Made by a program: the position numbers and the translations under genes. Positions 4,298 to 19,221 of a DNA stretch of 64,000 bases are shown here, piece after piece. The stretch comes from Candidatus Heimdallarchaeota archaeon. Its GTDB lineage: Archaea; Asgardarchaeota; Heimdallarchaeia; Heimdallarchaeales; Heimdallarchaeaceae. Position 1 is the stretch's first letter. Each line of letters begins with the position of its first letter. The stretch is taken from NCBI GenBank assembly GCA_021399395.1, contig JAAFKJ010000001.1:7357-71356 (forward strand), written 5' to 3'. Under the pieces are notes generated by a model. That model saw only the letters and a program-made list of their open reading frames with translations. It was not told where the DNA came from and made no database searches.

Positions 4298-5335
4298 TTA
4301 TTTGAAAATAATATTTAATTGTGTTTCACATTTATTACAATTTCCAGTTAAAGAAATTCTTCTAAGTTCAGTCACAGTTGAAGATCTCTTAATCAACAAT
4401 TCATTACAATTTGGACAATAAGTGTTATTGGAATCATGATCTGGGACATTGTCTAAGTAAACAAAATGCAATCCTGCATCTTTTGCAGCTTTGAATGATT
4501 CTTCTAGAAGCACAATAGAAGTTGGAGATAGTTCTTTTAGTCTGTGTGCTGGAAGTAATCGGGCTAAATGCAAGGGAACTGAAGGTGACAATTCGGTTTT
4601 TATCCAGTCAGCTAATTTTCTAGCTTCTTCTACACCATTTCCTAGTTTCTCATGAATTACAAGATTGAGTTCCAAGAGCTTTTCTTTTTCATGAATAAGT
4701 TTAATAATTGATTTTATTTGCCCAAAATTTCCTCTCCGACAATTGCTTTCGTAGCCTTTGTCTGAAATTGATTTAATATCAATAGTTACCGCATCAACAT
4801 ATTCCAAAATTTCTTCAACGGGTTCTTTGTTAAAGTAACCATTTGTTCTAAGTAAAATTTTTAATCCTCTATCTTTTGCTAACTTAGCCGAATCTCTAAA
4901 CCATTCAAAAGAAATTAGTGGTTCTGCCTCTCCAAAACAGATAACCTTGGAACCTGAAGCCATTCCAAACATTGCTACTTGATCAGGAGCTAATTTCTTT
5001 CCCATGTATTTTTCAGGATCTGAAAATGCCTTATCCGGCATTGTACAATAGTCACAATCCAAGTTACAATTGTATGTTGAAAATGTTTGTGCTCTAGAAT
5101 TAGGTAGAAAATGATAAACATGCTGTTTTTCAATCATGTCTATTTTCATATCTGTTGCTCCGTAAGTGAGAGAATACAGTTTACCATCAATGTTTTTTCG
5201 TGCTAAACATTTACCTGTTTCCTCCCTTAGAAGTGTACACTCAATTGGACACAGTTTACATTGAATAACTTGGTTGTCTTCATCAAGAATTTCATAATAA
5301 TCTGCTTCGTGCAAAGTTTGAGACATCGGCTTCAT
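4298..5335 (-). CDS. radical SAM protein, divergent AmmeMemoRadiSam (AmrS)/PFL-activase-like
   Basis: CX3CX2C cluster YNCNLDCDYC, N-terminal auxiliary Cys motif QCKLCPIECT...GKC, C-terminal CPNC...CNKC ribbon. Collinear with the paralog at 20620..21645, but the usual CQNW after the cluster reads CTMP. Confidence 0.75.
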   Translation of the reverse strand: MKPMSQTLHEADYYEILDEDNQVIQCKLCPIECTLLREETGKCLARKNIDGKLYSLTYGATDMKIDMIEKQHVYHFLPNSRAQTFSTYNCNLDCDYCTMPDKAFSDPEKYMGKKLAPDQVAMFGMASGSKVICFGEAEPLISFEWFRDSAKLAKDRGLKILLRTNGYFNKEPVEEILEYVDAVTIDIKSISDKGYESNCRRGNFGQIKSIIKLIHEKEKLLELNLVIHEKLGNGVEEARKLADWIKTELSPSVPLHLARLLPAHRLKELSPTSIVLLEESFKAAKDAGLHFVYLDNVPDHDSNNTYCPNCNELLIKRSSTVTELRRISLTGNCNKCETQLNIIFK

Positions 5336-5503
5336 GACAATCTTTGAGGTTCATTATTAAAGTTTATTAAACCAACAAATACATGAACAAACAAACAATC
5401 TCGATAGATATTAATAAGATAAAATTCGGTCTACTTTTCCATAAAGCAAAAATCTTGAGAAATGAGCAAAAAGTATTTCTAATCTAAAACTATTTTTCTC
5501 ATA

Positions 5504-6649
5504 ATGTGGTCTCTTCTTCGTAAAGATGTCATGACAGTTTGGCAACAAGTTGAATTGAAGGAAAGGTTAGTTCGATATAGAGAGATTTTCCAAGGAAAGC
5601 GTATTCCAAGGTATAAGCTTGCCAGATTATTTTTTGTTCCATTTGACGAATATAAAGATAGGGGGGAATTATTGGACATTCATGAGCATTATCACACAAA
5701 ATTCAAAGCATGGTTAGAAGAGAAGCAATCCTTACCATTGGAAAAAGTGGAACAGGAAGTCTATACTAAGCATACAGAGACCGAGATAGTAAACAACAAT
5801 TATTTGAAACTAAAATCAATAATTCTAAATGACATTTTATCCTCGTGCGAGTTCTGTGAAACAAGGTGCAAAACTAATCGTTCTGAAGGTAAAGTTGGAA
5901 AATGTGGAGTAGATGGAGAAGCGTATGTCAGTTCATCGTTTATTCACATGGGGGAAGAAAGTCCAATTATACCTAGTGGAACAATTTTCTTCTATGGATG
6001 TACAATTGACTGTCAATTTTGTCAAAATTGGGATATAAGCCATGAATTTGATCTACAAAGGTTTAAAGGACGAGGAACATCTTCTGTTGAATTAGCTAGT
6101 ATGTTTTATTCTCTTGTAAAACAAAATGCAAGAAATATCAACTTTGTAGGTGGAGAACCAACACCAAACCTTCATGTGATTTTTGAAGCTCTTCTCATTA
6201 CACAAGTAGATGTACCAATGTTGTGGAATAGTAATATGTACTTAACCGAGACAAGTATGAAACTAATCTCGGACATATTTGATATTTGGTTACCTGATAT
6301 GAAATATAGTAACAATGAATGTGCTTCAAAATATTCCAAAGCACCAGTATATTGGGATGCTTTGAAACGAAATATGAAGATGATAGAGCAAAGAGGAAGT
6401 GGAGAATATGTTATACGTCATCTTGTAATGCCAAGCCATACAAAGTGTTGTTCACTACCTATTTTGGACTGGGTTAATGAGAATTTGAAAACACCATTAA
6501 TCAATATCATGGCACAATATCATCCAGACTACAAAGTACTTCAAACAGATAGATTTCCAGAGATTGGAAGAAGAGTATCTACAGGTGAAATGCATGAAGT
6601 TAGAAGTTATGCAGATAAACTTGGTCTCTACTGGAAAAGTGTGTCTTAA
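5504..6649 (+). CDS. radical SAM protein, PflX-like putative activating enzyme
   Basis: GCTIDCQFCQNWDISH (CX3CX2C followed by QNW), an upstream Cys-rich stretch CEFCETRCK...GKCG, and NFVGGEPTP. Confidence 0.75.
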   Translation: MWSLLRKDVMTVWQQVELKERLVRYREIFQGKRIPRYKLARLFFVPFDEYKDRGELLDIHEHYHTKFKAWLEEKQSLPLEKVEQEVYTKHTETEIVNNNYLKLKSIILNDILSSCEFCETRCKTNRSEGKVGKCGVDGEAYVSSSFIHMGEESPIIPSGTIFFYGCTIDCQFCQNWDISHEFDLQRFKGRGTSSVELASMFYSLVKQNARNINFVGGEPTPNLHVIFEALLITQVDVPMLWNSNMYLTETSMKLISDIFDIWLPDMKYSNNECASKYSKAPVYWDALKRNMKMIEQRGSGEYVIRHLVMPSHTKCCSLPILDWVNENLKTPLINIMAQYHPDYKVLQTDRFPEIGRRVSTGEMHEVRSYADKLGLYWKSVS

Positions 6650-6659
6650 GAGCAATATA

Positions 6660-7148
6660 TTATTGGATACTCATTTCCCAGAGTAATCTTTTGGTAGTAT
6701 TTCTTTCCCACTTATTTAATGCGCTTCGTGCTGCTATAGTTTCTGATAAGAATTTATGTTGGAAATCAGATATAAAATCAATCAGTTTCTCAATTTCTGA
6801 CACTTTTTCAAGTAAAGCTTGGGAGATATAGAATGTAATAGAAAATCCTGGTTCAGGTTCTTTTTGTACAATCCCTGTAGATTCATACAAAGCTAGACTC
6901 AATCTTCTTAATAGCATATCATCAAATGGGTCTCTTAATTCTAGAATTAAGGAAATTAAGCTAGAGTTTCGTGTTTTTTCAATGAACCCATTCTTTAGAG
7001 GAAACTGCTTTAGATCCATTTCTCTACATTCTTTACAGATCACACATGGATAGTTTATCTCCCTATGAGGACAAACATAGCGTTGTAATCTTAGAGCCTC
7101 TCTAATTTTATCCTTATCTTCCAAAAATTCGGGTTGACCAGAACTCAT
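6660..7148 (-). CDS. hypothetical protein with CPH-x7-CVICKEC putative metal-binding motif
   Basis: 162-aa ORF filling the spacer. Only the Cys/His motif was recognised. Confidence 0.45.
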   Translation of the reverse strand: MSSGQPEFLEDKDKIREALRLQRYVCPHREINYPCVICKECREMDLKQFPLKNGFIEKTRNSSLISLILELRDPFDDMLLRRLSLALYESTGIVQKEPEPGFSITFYISQALLEKVSEIEKLIDFISDFQHKFLSETIAARSALNKWERNTTKRLLWEMSIQ

Positions 7149-15007: not shown

Positions 15008-15457
15008 ATGCAACTAGAGACTTCTGCGGGGATTGTCGTTTACAATTCTGGTCATTATCTACTACTTAACTACGGACGAAGTCGCATAACAGAGAACCGA
15101 TGGGGTTTGACAAAAGGTCGTATTGAAGAGAATGAAACTGTTATGCAAGCAGCACTAAGAGAGACTTTTGAAGAAACAGGTATTTCAGACATATCCATCT
15201 TAGAAGAATTTCAGCATAAGATAATTTACTATTTTTCCCGAGGATCACACAGAATAAAGAAAACTGTAATTTATCTAATCGGGATATCTCCTGTTAAAGA
15301 AATAACGATATCTAAAGAACATATAGGTTTTCACTGGGCGAAGTACGAAGATGCTTTGGAAATGTTAACTTTTGAAAATACTCGAAAGGTTATAAGAGCC
15401 GCAGAAAGGTATCTGCGAGATAACGAATTAGCGAAAGAACCTTCAGAGGAGAATTGA
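15008..15457 (+). CDS. NUDIX hydrolase
   Basis: Nudix box GRIEENETVMQAALRETFEETGI (GX5EX7REUXEEXGU). Confidence 0.85.
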   Translation: MQLETSAGIVVYNSGHYLLLNYGRSRITENRWGLTKGRIEENETVMQAALRETFEETGISDISILEEFQHKIIYYFSRGSHRIKKTVIYLIGISPVKEITISKEHIGFHWAKYEDALEMLTFENTRKVIRAAERYLRDNELAKEPSEEN

Positions 15458-16024
15458 TTGGCACTTACAGAAGAAGATCTTATATCTAAAACTCCAACTA
15501 TCAAAAAACCAAAAACCTTGAATCCTCTAGGAGCAGTAATTTTTGGTTTGCTATTAGGAATTGGTCATACTCTTATCTATTCTAGTTTGCTTAGAATAAG
15601 GTACTATTGGTATTTCAGTATCTTTGGATTTCTACTAATCGCATTGTCAGTTCTTGTTATAATTGTAGTCATATCTTTAACATCAAAGTCCATATTATTC
15701 ACTCTTAAAATCGAAAAAGTGAAGACTCCTCCAGCACTATCAGTATTACAAATTCTACTATTCTACCTAGGATTCGTACCCATATATGGGTTCAGTATTA
15801 TGTATCTAGAACAAACAATCGAGTTCTGGGAAATTATGGTTACTACTGCAATCGTAGTCGTTCTTTTTGCACTTGCTCTTTTATTGAACATCTTTCTAAT
15901 CAAGAAGGAAAAAGCCAGCCTAGGTCATTTAAAGAAATTTTTCTATCAACCAAAAAAATTACTACTAATAGGTATAGGTATAATGATCTCTTCAATTGTT
16001 ACAGCAATTATTTTCTTGTTTTAG
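15458..16024 (+). CDS. integral membrane protein (about 5 TM)
   Basis: Hydrophobic segments throughout. The start abuts the NUDIX stop. Confidence 0.5.
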   Translation: MALTEEDLISKTPTIKKPKTLNPLGAVIFGLLLGIGHTLIYSSLLRIRYYWYFSIFGFLLIALSVLVIIVVISLTSKSILFTLKIEKVKTPPALSVLQILLFYLGFVPIYGFSIMYLEQTIEFWEIMVTTAIVVVLFALALLLNIFLIKKEKASLGHLKKFFYQPKKLLLIGIGIMISSIVTAIIFLF

Positions 16025-16031
16025 CACATTA

Positions 16032-16412
16032 TCATTGCATAATTCGAAAACCTTCAGCTGTAATTTCTTCTTTGAGCCTTTGAAAAGTTTTAATCGATTC
16101 ATCAAAGTCTACTTTGTTTGAAATAGTTTCAACTCCCTTTAAAGTAGAACCTTTGAATTTCCACATTTCCACGCTATATACGTAAGTGTCAGGTTCTGGT
16201 ATGTGTAAACCACTTCTGTCATAGACATATCCTGATCTTTGTCCAAAAGAGAGCATTAGAATGAACCAATAGTGTGGTCTAGGGTCATCATCATCATCTG
16301 ATGGTTTCTCTAGAGTTATTGTCTCTTCGACAGTTCCACTTTTAGTGTCCGCAGACAGTTTAAGTTTTTGTAAATTCTTATACACATCTGGGTGTAATCT
16401 TTTCGATGACAT
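16032..16412 (-). CDS. hypothetical protein (126 aa)
   Basis: ORF only. It contains a DDDDD acidic run. Confidence 0.45.
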   Translation of the reverse strand: MSSKRLHPDVYKNLQKLKLSADTKSGTVEETITLEKPSDDDDDPRPHYWFILMLSFGQRSGYVYDRSGLHIPEPDTYVYSVEMWKFKGSTLKGVETISNKVDFDESIKTFQRLKEEITAEGFRIMQ

Positions 16413-16599
16413 CTATCAACAGTATCAAAATACACTAATCAGTTAAAAATTTAACTCTTAATTTTAACGAATTTATATATAAAAAACCATTTGCTTAAGT
16501 AAGTGTTATCAAAAAATGGCTGTTAGTATTTAAAAAGGGTTTAAATAATACGGAAGGAATAATCTTCTACATACGGCTCATTACAAGTGTGATTTAGAG

Positions 16600-19221
16600 A
16601 TGTCTGAACAACCTTCTCCACTGAAATGCGTCATAATTGATATAGATTTTTTTATTCAAGAGAAGGAAAAAGAGATTGAAGAACCTATTATACGAATTCG
16701 TGGTAAAACAAAAGAGAATCAACCCCTAATTGTTCATATCTCCGGATTTTACCCTTATTTCTTCATTGATGACATTCCAACTACTACAGATGCAATACAG
16801 AGTTTGCTATATACAGAAAAAGAGTTTGGAAGTTGGATTAAAGATCACTATCCTCTAACTAAAAACAAATACTATCAACACAAACCAATTTATCTGCATA
16901 AAATCCTTGGAAGAAATCCGTGGAGGATTCTTAGATATAGTAAGAAATTGAAAGATATAGGTATTAAGAGCTATGAGAACGATATTTCTTATGTATCAAG
17001 ATTCTTAATTGACAACAATATCAAGGGTTTGAACTGGATAGAAATATCTAATTTTAAAGAGAAAACCGATAAAAATGGTGTAAGAGTAGTAGAAACAAAC
17101 ATAGAAAACATAAAACCTATAGAAGATGAAATAGAATTTCCACTCAATATCCTTTCTCTAAGCATAGTGATTAATTCTATCACAAAAGAAGGTAAGAAAA
17201 TAAAGAATTTTTCTAGTGTCTTTGAGGAGAAAGAAAATCGAATAGTTTGTGCAAGTATCGCTTGGGGGAAAAACATAGAAGAAACTAAGAGCAAAAGCTT
17301 TATTCTTGAGAAAGACGATGCAGAAAGTGAGCGTAAGCTTCTTTTTGATTTGATTAAAGAGATTCACGCAATTTCCCCTGAAGTTATAGTAACATTCAAT
17401 GGTAATCAAATTACATTACCTTATTTGATTGCAAGGATGGAAAGATTAGGCTTAAATCCAGCTACTTTAGGACCATATCAAGATGTAAAAATTAAATCGC
17501 CTATTGGCTATCTTGGTTATAGAATACCTGGGTACATAGTTTATGATTTAGTAAAGAGCACCAGATGGCTAAGAACAAGAACAGGAAGAAAGAGACTTTC
17601 TGATTTTGCTAGGGAACTTCTAAATATTGAGAGAGAAGGAGGATATGATAAAGCAAATAATATGTGGTTTAATTCGGTTATAAGGGGAGAAGAAAAACTT
17701 AGTAAGAAACTTAAAAAATTATGTGATCTTGACGCGATAATCGTTCATAATCTATTCTTTGAGATGGGTTTAGAAGAGTATTTGCAAATCGTAAAACTAG
17801 TTGGTATTCGACCCTCTGAAGGCATCTACTCCACTCCAAGACACATTGGAGAGTTTCAACTTTTCAGAGTTCTGCATCACAAAAACACCCTAATTCCCGC
17901 TGAACCTACACGAGAAGAATTAGCTTTTCGTAGGAGTACAAGATCTCAAGCAATTGGAGGTTTTGTTCTTGTTCCTAAAGGAACACTCCATGAAGCCGTT
18001 CTTATTGCTGATTTTCGTTCAATGTTTCCTTCAGTGATGGTTGCATTCAATGTTGGTGGAGAAGGTTACAATGGCGCTGTTGCCCTTCCCGAAAAGAAGT
18101 TTCGAGATGAACCAGATTCAGGTTTAAGAATAATGATGAGAGGATTACTGAAAGAGAGAAAGAAAATCAAACAACAAATTTATGATTTAGAGACATATCT
18201 TCGTACTTTTGAAGACTCAAAGAAGAAAACAGAACTAGGTATTAAGCTTCATAAGTTGAAGACAAAGTCAAGTGCACTAAAGATAACTGCAAATTCTCTA
18301 TATGGCAGTCACAACTATGTTGGGAGCCGTTTTTACGATACAGAAATCTCAAATGCCATTACAAGCATTGCTAAAGATTACATTAAGAAAGTAGACAAAT
18401 GGACTCAAGAGTTCTCAAGTAACCGTTGTCAAGCAATCTATGGTGATACTGATAGTATCTTCATTAAACTATCAGACAAGGATAAAGTCTTTGAAATAGC
18501 ACAGAAAGTAAAAGATGGTGGAGTATTTTCTTTAGAAGAAGTACCTGAAGCTGTTGCTCTATTTGACTTTTTTGAAACAAAATTACCTAAAGAGATGGAG
18601 CTAGAATTTGTTGATTTAGCAACAAGAATCGTTTTTGCTCCTGAAACCAAAAAGAGGTACAGTTACATAAGCGCTGTTACTGGAGAATTAACTATCACAG
18701 GTTTTGAAGCTATCAGAAGTGACACTTCTCCATTTGCTAAAGAGGTTCAGACCGAAGCTCTACAATGCGTTTTAGCTGATGGAAATGTCGACAAAGCAAG
18801 AAAAAGAGTTATTGAGTTGGGATTAGAATTCAAACAAATATCAGAGCAAGAATTACTTGATAAAACCACTATTTTAGGTCCAATTAGAAGGAATCCAAAA
18901 GACTATAAATCGAAGACTCCTGCAGTTGGAGCACTTGAGCATTTTACCATCAGAATGGGTTTGAATATTAATGAAATTTGGAAAGATTATGAAAGATTTC
19001 CATATGTAATTATGGAAGGAGATTCAGCACTGTATAAACGTGCACAACATCCTTCTTTAGCAGATTCTTCTAAAATTGATAAAAACCATTATCTTTTGGA
19101 AGCAGTACGTGATGTTCAGAGAATAGGAGTCAAAGTAGAATTAAGAGATCTTCAATCCTCAAGTCAAAAAACACTTGATTTTTCGTCATTACATGCTAAT
19201 GGAAAAAATGAAGAAGATTAG
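16600..19221 (+). CDS. polB: family B DNA polymerase with intact polymerase motifs but degenerate 3'-5' exonuclease motifs
   Basis: Motif A DFRSMFPS, motif B KITANSLYG, motif C YGDTDS. The Exo I position reads SIV, the Exo II position NGNQIT and the Exo III position LCDLD. Confidence 0.92.
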   Translation: MSEQPSPLKCVIIDIDFFIQEKEKEIEEPIIRIRGKTKENQPLIVHISGFYPYFFIDDIPTTTDAIQSLLYTEKEFGSWIKDHYPLTKNKYYQHKPIYLHKILGRNPWRILRYSKKLKDIGIKSYENDISYVSRFLIDNNIKGLNWIEISNFKEKTDKNGVRVVETNIENIKPIEDEIEFPLNILSLSIVINSITKEGKKIKNFSSVFEEKENRIVCASIAWGKNIEETKSKSFILEKDDAESERKLLFDLIKEIHAISPEVIVTFNGNQITLPYLIARMERLGLNPATLGPYQDVKIKSPIGYLGYRIPGYIVYDLVKSTRWLRTRTGRKRLSDFARELLNIEREGGYDKANNMWFNSVIRGEEKLSKKLKKLCDLDAIIVHNLFFEMGLEEYLQIVKLVGIRPSEGIYSTPRHIGEFQLFRVLHHKNTLIPAEPTREELAFRRSTRSQAIGGFVLVPKGTLHEAVLIADFRSMFPSVMVAFNVGGEGYNGAVALPEKKFRDEPDSGLRIMMRGLLKERKKIKQQIYDLETYLRTFEDSKKKTELGIKLHKLKTKSSALKITANSLYGSHNYVGSRFYDTEISNAITSIAKDYIKKVDKWTQEFSSNRCQAIYGDTDSIFIKLSDKDKVFEIAQKVKDGGVFSLEEVPEAVALFDFFETKLPKEMELEFVDLATRIVFAPETKKRYSYISAVTGELTITGFEAIRSDTSPFAKEVQTEALQCVLADGNVDKARKRVIELGLEFKQISEQELLDKTTILGPIRRNPKDYKSKTPAVGALEHFTIRMGLNINEIWKDYERFPYVIMEGDSALYKRAQHPSLADSSKIDKNHYLLEAVRDVQRIGVKVELRDLQSSSQKTLDFSSLHANGKNEED

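Follow-up and report, generated by a model that had tools for sequence, protein, structure and literature searches.

A predicted exonuclease-deficient family-B DNA polymerase of the Heimdallarchaeaceae within a B3-like Asgard clade

Eukaryotic replication is characterized by a division of labor among family-B DNA polymerases, in which proofreading replicases are accompanied by the exonuclease-dead enzymes Pol alpha and Pol zeta. PMC7544198 counts Pol alpha, Pol zeta, the C-terminal half of Pol epsilon, and archaeal PolB2 among the exonuclease-dead members of the family, and that paper and PMC12680538 present Pol zeta and Pol alpha as exonuclease-inactivated enzymes with specialized roles beside proofreading paralogues. 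We analyzed a 64,000-nucleotide stretch of DNA (the window) from Candidatus Heimdallarchaeota archaeon (GenBank assembly GCA_021399395.1, contig JAAFKJ010000001.1, positions 7,357 to 71,356) and report on one of its genes, which encodes an 873-amino-acid family-B DNA polymerase, P0001 (16600..19221, plus strand). The closest described enzymes are the B3 polymerases of the Thermococcales (Pfu, KOD, Tgo, and 9N PolB), the best sequence and fold matches to P0001 (phmmer E 8e-41). P0001 is like them in domain order, in polymerase motifs A, B, and C, in the KxY motif, and in a C-terminal tail that resembles a PCNA box, but identity is only 22 to 24%, residues D141, E143, D215, and Y311 of Pfu PolB are replaced, and the steric gate is Phe. 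Judged by its sequence, P0001 belongs with the exonuclease-deficient B-family enzymes rather than with the proofreading replicases. We consider it probable that the protein is a polymerase-active, nonproofreading enzyme specialized for repair, gap filling, or damage-tolerant synthesis.

P0001 has the build of a family-B polymerase. It matches the Pfam profiles DNA_pol_B (PF00136; 2.3e-33) and DNA_pol_B_exo1 (PF03104; 8.5e-17), its N-terminal and exonuclease-fold domains lie upstream of the palm, and motifs A, B, and C and the KxY motif are all present. We built an AlphaFold2 (AF2) model from the family alignment (predicted local distance difference test [pLDDT] score, 83; predicted template modeling [pTM] score, 0.82), and Foldseek returned the KOD, Tgo, 9N, and Pfu polymerases as its top matches (E ~1e-42; target-normalized template modeling [TM] score, ~0.8), with Pol delta second (TM 0.75, normalized to the query). 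By sequence, profile, and fold, the best matches in the PDB were B3 polymerases of the Thermococcales and Pyrobaculum.

We examined the 3'-5' exonuclease site in several alignments. The Pfu PolB reference sequence, which we verified to be identical to PDB 3a2f_A over residues 1 to 775, was aligned with 72 PolBs by L-INS-i. The family was aligned with one more distant relative, P0039, by MAFFT, and L-INS-i alignments of 44 to 73 PolBs included intact orthologues from other families; orthologues were retrieved from 20 other Asgard genomes. P0001 lacks four of the five residues that define a DEDDy exonuclease. In the Exo I remnant LSIVI (residues 187 to 191), S188-I189-V190 (17161..17169) stands where D-I-E is expected, with S188 and V190 at the positions of Pfu D141 and E143. 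The Exo II remnant NGNQITLPYL (residues 267 to 276; 17398..17427) has T272 (17413..17415) for the Asp (Pfu D215), and the Exo III remnant LCDLDA (residues 374 to 379; 17719..17736) has L374 (17719..17721) for the Tyr (Pfu Y311). D378, the counterpart of Pfu D315, is the sole survivor; all three remnants are read on the plus strand. Where P0001 has LSIVIN, NGNQITLPYL, and LCDLDA, P0039 has FDIEVD, NGNQFDLPYL, and YALKDA. Orthologues from families other than that of the window keep DIE, FD, and YxxxD in these columns, and each listed intact orthologue in the Pfu-aligned set, like the outgroup, has D, E, D, Y, and D. HMMER alignments to the P. abyssi and KOD polymerases gave the same register for Exo II and Exo III. 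The initial annotation had matched these motifs by eye to Pyrococcus and Thermococcus PolB. In the translated ORF, the exonuclease and polymerase motifs lie where it had placed them, and three independent alignments upheld its column equivalence, with an unchanged register and no DxE and Asp recovered at shifted positions. The exonuclease-deficient, nonreplicase profile that it had proposed is borne out by the replaced residues together with a complete polymerase site.

The loss extends through the family. P0001 has about 38 close relatives at 48 to 80% identity, all from metagenome-assembled genomes of Heimdallarchaeaceae or Heimdallarchaeota, to which P0039 adds one at 32%. Among 29 aligned family members, none has the Exo I Asp, the Exo I Glu, or the Exo III Tyr and one has the Exo II Asp, and all 29 have the Exo III Asp. 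The replacement residues are heterogeneous (N, S, G, or R; V, I, A, T, N, or F; and T, I, L, or V), and such heterogeneity at catalytic columns is a signature of released constraint. One family member, the partial sequence P0038, carries the NCBI label "3'-5' exonuclease, partial." This label is misleading because the catalytic exonuclease residues are absent, and the present analysis corrects it.

Exonuclease activity might instead be kept by noncanonical residues, through a rewired site or a shifted register. Such a site could draw on Asp378, which is invariant, and on E210 and E393; no other acidic columns of the exonuclease domain are both conserved among the 29 members and specific to the family. 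This domain is still under selection. However, E210 and E393 were rejected as compensating residues, as they form no DxE-like pair; the register is the same in three alignment methods with a validated reference; and the replacements vary from member to member. Moreover, the D141A/E143A change alone gives the standard exo- variant of the homologous Thermococcus kodakarensis PolB (PMC13136892). We regard a cryptic exonuclease as very improbable.

The polymerase site of P0001 keeps all of its catalytic residues. Motif A (DFRSMFPS, from residue 471; 18010..18033) retains D471, and motif B (KITANSLYG, from residue 561, with K561, N565, and Y568; 18280..18306) is invariant in the family. Motif C (YGDTDS, from residue 614, with D616 and D618; 18439..18456) and the KxY motif (KKRY, with K685 and Y687; 18649..18660) are invariant in both the family and the wider clade; all four lie on the plus strand. 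Pfu D405, K488, N492, Y495, D541, D543, K593, and Y595 align by L-INS-i to identical residues in P0001, and none of the residues D471, K561, N565, Y568, D616, D618, K685, and Y687 varies over five genera with identities as low as 48%. The description of motifs A, B, and C as intact in the initial annotation thus stands for the catalytic residues but not for the steric-gate Tyr of motif A, which is Phe476 here (18025..18027). The steric gate is Y409 in KOD, the equivalent of Pfu Y410 (PMC13136892). In the window's own family (f1, called Heimdallarchaeaceae after the NCBI labels of the homologues, with g1 to g4 among its genera; f2, f4, f5, and f6 denote other families), Phe476 occurs in g1, g2, and g4, and Tyr occurs in g3, as it does in every exonuclease-intact orthologue.

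Other sequence features of the protein are shared more widely. The Tyr of the Y-GG/A motif (Pfu 378-412 region) is replaced throughout the Heimdall-type clade described below, by His (PHxGG) in most families and by Ala or Val in the order containing the window's family. The loop after Exo I carries an insertion throughout that order. Both changes are clade- or order-wide, and therefore neither is specific to the exonuclease-dead group. At the C terminus, the tail QKTLDFSSL (19165..19191, plus strand) resembles a PCNA-interacting peptide (PIP). It is conserved as QKTLDFS[LS], with Q856, T858, and L859 invariant or nearly so, and compared with the canonical Q-x-x-[LIM]-x-x-[FYW]-[FYWL], its aromatic residue comes one position early. 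Orthologue tails have TTLFDFV, RLDDFL, or RLIDFF at this place.

We inferred two trees with IQ-TREE, a quick LG+C20 tree of 70 rows and a careful tree of 45 rows with ultrafast bootstrap (UFBoot) and Shimodaira-Hasegawa approximate likelihood ratio test (SH-aLRT) support, both without eukaryotic or B2 sequences. P0001 falls in a "Heimdall-type" clade (100/100 support) on its own long stem (0.9 to 1.1), outside the sampled B3 sequences. Within it, the exonuclease-dead f1 proteins are monophyletic (100/100), with a stem of 0.67 to 0.71 changes per site, and are sister (100/99) to the exonuclease-intact orthologues of f2 and f4, two families of the order to which f1 belongs. Because gene tree and taxonomy agree, the exonuclease loss is placed on the stem of the window's family. 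The phylogeny called for in the initial annotation is therefore settled in part: P0001 sits in its own 100/100 clade among Heimdallarchaeia orthologues, but the place of the Heimdall-type clade relative to B3 and B6 differs between the two trees. A search of 1.84 billion representative proteins returned a discrete clade above 360 bits, followed by other PolBs below 300 bits.

The PolB clade to which P0001 belongs is B3-like by similarity and spans the Heimdallarchaeia; in the window's family its orthologue is present in a single copy and is inherited vertically. Of the 29 family genomes, 27 have the polymerase gene, two single-contig genomes among them. In 23 of these 27 the copy is full length with an intact frame, and the other four have pieces truncated at contig ends. 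A mobile-element or contamination origin was ruled out by the taxonomy-matching tree, the two single-contig genomes, and synteny across genera.

Decay of the site was stepwise within the family, as the Exo II Asp is still present in genera g3 and g4 and gone in g1 and g2. Elsewhere in the Heimdall-type clade, three more exonuclease-degenerate lineages each stand beside an intact sister: a second paralogue of family f6 (paralogue "b"), P0098, and P0101. The Exo I motif of the f6 paralogue reads NIKIA, NVKIA, or KVEIT. P0098 (locus L044) has ITVEAK and an Asp-to-Arg change in Exo III, and P0101 (locus L038) has IRINPG. A single origin of the exonuclease-dead lineages was rejected: forcing the f1 proteins and the f6 paralogue together, a group that was named after the tree had been seen, cost 105.5 log-likelihood units (approximately unbiased test, p-AU 1.6e-123). 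These results show that the exonuclease residues were lost independently at least three more times in the clade. A gene for a Hel308-like helicase lies near that of P0101.

To test for selection, we fixed the topology and fitted branch lengths to each domain separately. The ratio of exonuclease- to polymerase-domain rates was 1.21 in intact lineages. In f1 it was 1.79 for the crown and 1.67 for the stem, against 0.72 for the sister stem, and the stem of the f6 paralogue reached 3.99. The N-terminal domain showed no such rate shift. The f1 exonuclease domain is thus relaxed about 1.5-fold yet remains constrained, in keeping with a domain retained for structure. A decaying or catalytically inert relic, such as a scaffold comparable to the C-terminal half of Pol epsilon, could also show a long stem like that of f1 and a faster-evolving exonuclease domain. 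However, the catalytic residues are invariant over five genera, the full-length frames are intact, and the synteny is stable, so that a relic is scarcely credible. A pseudogene was ruled out by the invariant catalytic residues and the intact reading frames in the family.

The initial annotation had raised the question of which other polymerases accompany P0001, and PolD, PolB1, and a Y-family polymerase were found beside it in its family. The window's genome (2.8 Mb, 82% complete) has exactly two PolB genes. The second, on contig C18, encodes a 902-amino-acid PolB1 (Dpo1, 1s5j, E 6.5e-174) with intact DIE, NGDNFDF, and YNGRDAE motifs and a canonical PIP tail, ending in QKSLDNWFK. This pairing of an exonuclease-dead PolB with an intact PolB1 is general in the family. 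The PolD subunit DP2 and a Y-family polymerase each occur in all 22 family genomes checked, and DP1 was found in the window's own genome. The DP2 frame is about 1,724 amino acids long in the window's genome (G000, contig C52; locus L003) and in several relatives and about 1,190 amino acids in others, and PolB1 frames range from about 920 to about 1,340 amino acids. These length differences suggest a variable intein content.

The polymerase gene has a constant divergent neighbor. This gene, orf126 (16032..16412, minus strand), encodes an orphan 126-amino-acid protein and is separated from the polymerase gene by an AT-rich spacer of 187 bp (16413..16599), which is presumed to hold both promoters. 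We found orf126 in all 22 family genomes checked and in 0 of 30 genomes of the class's other families. In 21 of the 22 it divergently adjoins the polymerase gene, usually at a distance of about 170 to 290 bp, and in the remaining genome a contig end separates the pair. The two single-contig genomes carry the pair at G026:C1:8534-11110 and G074:C1:48393-50963, 8.5 kb and 48 kb from coordinate 1. A collection of 5.8 billion proteins holds 57 homologues of orf126, all from Heimdallarchaeaceae or Heimdallarchaeota and none with a Pfam domain. Identity to genus g3 is 64% for orf126 versus 49% for the polymerase.

The AF2 model of the orf126 product (pLDDT 85.6) consists of a helix, a long antiparallel sheet, and a second helix. 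Its top Foldseek matches were PARP2 WGR-DNA-break complexes (probability 0.91 to 0.99; TM 0.44 to 0.60; E 0.1 to 0.6), and the PARP2 WGR domain made up 12 of the top 30 matches (TM 0.43 to 0.60; E 0.1 to 1.0). The Pfam WGR profile had no match among 31 orf126 members at an E value of ≤10, and a WGR profile search of the genome did not pick out the orf126 locus. The predicted WGR-like fold is therefore a tentative assignment. orf126 differs from the WGR domains of PARP1 and PARP2 in having no sequence-level match to them and no PARP catalytic domain nearby.

The surrounding gene order is also conserved. A NUDIX hydrolase gene (15008..15457, plus strand; Pfam NUDIX 3.6e-16) is followed by a gene for a 188-amino-acid membrane protein (15458..16024, plus strand), and both are conserved just before the orf126-polymerase pair. 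The order NUDIX, membrane protein, orf126 on the minus strand, and polymerase is kept in genera g1, g3, and g4. Downstream of the polymerase gene, g1 and g4 also share an HTH_5 gene, whose conservation does not extend to g3. The NUDIX and membrane-protein genes are not beside the intact f2 orthologue, whose locus shares none of this synteny. About 9.5 kb upstream, at about 6660..7148 on the minus strand of the window, is a Pfam match to ARPC4 (Arp2/3 complex subunit 4), a protein of eukaryotic-signature type that also occurs in the syntenic region of g4.

A different neighbor accompanies the exonuclease-dead paralogue of f6. A same-strand SRAP (HMCES/YedK-type) gene precedes it in every f6 genome that has the paralogue, and these SRAP genes keep their N-terminal Cys (loci L037 [5065..5799], L039, L040, and L041). 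The one f6 genome without the exonuclease-dead paralogue lacks the SRAP gene, and none of the 22 genomes checked from the window's family has one. The coupling to SRAP, an abasic-site sensor, is seen in f6, and the window's family has the orphan orf126 as a neighbor instead. In bacteria, SRAP genes are linked with SOS and translesion polymerase genes, and the f6 linkage matches this arrangement. The SRAP gene beside the f6 paralogue indicates that in this clade proofreading loss accompanies lesion-sensing partners. Near the P0098 gene, an SRAP gene lies 4.3 kb away, behind an insertion that carries TnpB and a toxin-antitoxin pair (HEPN/NT). A 120-amino-acid gene divergent from that of P0101 is unrelated to orf126. 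It is possible, if rather doubtful, that this one clade, in the class of archaea nearest to the eukaryotes, repeatedly made exonuclease-dead specialists, at least four times, and that each was coupled to a lesion sensor wherever the locus could be adequately examined, to the WGR-like orphan in Heimdallarchaeaceae and to SRAP in f6. On that reading, the Heimdallarchaeaceae pair would be a nick or gap repair module of two proteins that had gone unrecognized.

We propose the following mechanism for P0001. On the stem of the window's family, the exonuclease site lost carboxylates and its tyrosine, and purifying selection continued to act on the polymerase active site, the fold, and the PCNA-box-like tail. 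The enzyme most likely still makes DNA but would be unable to proofread by itself. PolD, whose DP1 subunit is an exonuclease, and the proofreading PolB1 would carry out bulk high-fidelity replication, and P0001 would be a specialized, nonidling polymerase that acts on lesions, gaps, or nicks. Its recruitment may depend on the PIP-like tail, and it may be directed by the co-evolved product of the head-to-head gene orf126, whose modeled fold resembles the WGR domain with which PARP2 binds nicks and 5' ends. Loss of the exonuclease would stop futile excision opposite damaged templates and would favor strand displacement.

Several points weigh against this proposal. A Y-family polymerase is already available for translesion synthesis, so that role is not obviously vacant. 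The PIP-like tail is noncanonical, the WGR resemblance of the orf126 model is weak (E 0.1 to 0.6; TM ~0.5) and comes without sequence support, and gene adjacency is no proof of a physical or functional partnership. Finally, a homologue, T. kodakarensis PolB, has a part in the maturation of the lagging strand (PMC13136892).

P0001 could accordingly be a replisome polymerase for lagging-strand synthesis and the maturation of Okazaki fragments. In that case, the exonuclease would have been lost because PolD-DP1 or PolB1 proofreads in trans and because strand displacement is better without it. The closest characterized relatives, the Thermococcales PolBs, do work on the lagging strand and mature Okazaki fragments by displacing strands (PMC13136892), PolD and its DP1 subunit are available, the PIP-like tail is conserved, and the gene is single copy, with no proofreading sister copy in the family. 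However, the break-sensor-like predicted fold of orf126 and the SRAP linkage in f6 point to damage processing, and an intact PolB1 is available for replicative duty. What is known of Pol delta also counts against a role in maturation: there, when exonuclease "idling" is lost, nick maintenance suffers and maturation is not aided. We consider a lagging-strand role unlikely and favor the specialized repair or damage-tolerance enzyme.

A literature search found no description of the clade as exonuclease dead, and an exonuclease-dead Heimdallarchaeaceae PolB is not mentioned in the searched passages of Kazlauskas et al. 2020 (PMC7544198) or of the 2025 Asgard replisome study (PMC12680538). The search, which included the text and supplements of Kazlauskas et al. 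2020, also found no mention of the AB_125 orthologue OLS31778.1. The interest of the system comes mainly from its stepwise and repeated losses and from its lesion-sensor-like partner genes. The Heimdallarchaeia show a transition in progress, with intact orthologues, intermediates that retain the Exo II Asp, fully degenerate forms, and independent repeats. The exo+ and exo- orthologue pairs offer a tractable comparative system for what selects the loss of proofreading.

Among known exonuclease-dead polymerases, the archaeal PolB2 enzymes (Dpo2 type, exonuclease degenerate, translesion) are like P0001 in having a dead exonuclease site, in coexisting with proofreading polymerases, and in a likely damage-tolerance role. 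In PolB2, according to PMC7544198, Exo III is absent, motif C has a single Asp and a conserved His, and a compensating D(K/R) motif is present. Unlike PolB2, P0001 has both motif C Asp residues (YGDTDS), keeps Asp378 of Exo III, and belongs to a different clade. Motif C and the Exo III remnant rule out a PolB2 identity, and the PolB2-type affinity suggested in the initial annotation is not sustained. The PolB2-type genes of the class itself read AG[IL][TV]DS at motif C and encode about 720 to 780 amino acids. They were found at loci L029 to L032 (genomes G054, G256, G199, and G148), in families f2 and f5 and, in one case, on a 2.8-kb contig of an f1 genome; the window's own genome yielded none.

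Pol zeta (Rev3) and Pol alpha are like P0001 in that the exonuclease fold is kept and the catalytic residues are lost. The initial annotation had seen in this likeness a possible affinity to Pol alpha or Pol zeta, which does not hold by descent: P0001 is nested (100/100) among proofreading-competent orthologues, and its best PDB matches are Thermococcales B3 enzymes. P0001 also lacks the features of the Delta-like clade (Pol alpha, delta, and zeta, B4, and B6), as it has neither the Cys-rich C-terminal domain nor the FDIEC-type Cys signature (Exo I, Exo III, and motif A). In the PDB, a profile built from the wider clade gave KOD the highest score (359 bits), ahead of Pol delta (242), Pol alpha (206), Pol zeta (151), Escherichia coli Pol II (145), and Sulfolobus Dpo1 (125). 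As a positive control, a Pol-delta-like PolB from Baldrarchaeia (P0110) scored Pol delta first, at 456 bits versus 380 for KOD, and an intact member of the Heimdall-type clade scored B3 first in the same comparison. The nesting and the controlled ranking together rule out Pol alpha or Pol zeta ancestry.

A Pol alpha analogue need not share that ancestry, and P0001 might extend the primers of a eukaryote-like primase and then give way to PolD or PolB1. The classical exonuclease-dead enzyme of the B family is Pol alpha, the polymerase site of P0001 is intact, and PMC12680538 reports eukaryote-like primases in the "Heimdall clan." However, P0001 has no C-terminal Zn or Fe-S domain and no relation to Pol alpha by descent, the loci show no primase fusion or adjacency, and other families of the clan share the primase type yet keep the exonuclease. 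We consider such a role improbable, and the specialized repair or damage-tolerance polymerase remains our preferred reading.

The Asgard and DPANN polymerases that have been discussed as relatives of the eukaryotic enzymes, namely, Baldrarchaeia PolB3 and Aenigmarchaeota B6, are the nearest outgroup to the Heimdall-type clade in the 70-row tree only. They differ from P0001 in being exonuclease proficient (FDIEC), in having a DP2-like C-terminal domain, and in matching Pol delta best in the PDB. With the Baldrarchaeia PolB as a query, the best 120 homologues were all archaeal. If the exonuclease-dead enzymes of the Heimdall-type clade did each become coupled to a lesion sensor, the Heimdallarchaeaceae pair would be a living archaeal parallel to the origin of Pol zeta and Pol alpha from a Pol-delta-like ancestor. 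The resemblance of P0001 to Pol alpha and Pol zeta is convergent, the same kind of loss without shared ancestry. P0001 is thus a further, independent exonuclease-dead case, placed inside a B3-like Asgard clade and set apart from both PolB2 and the Delta-like polymerases by the features that define them.

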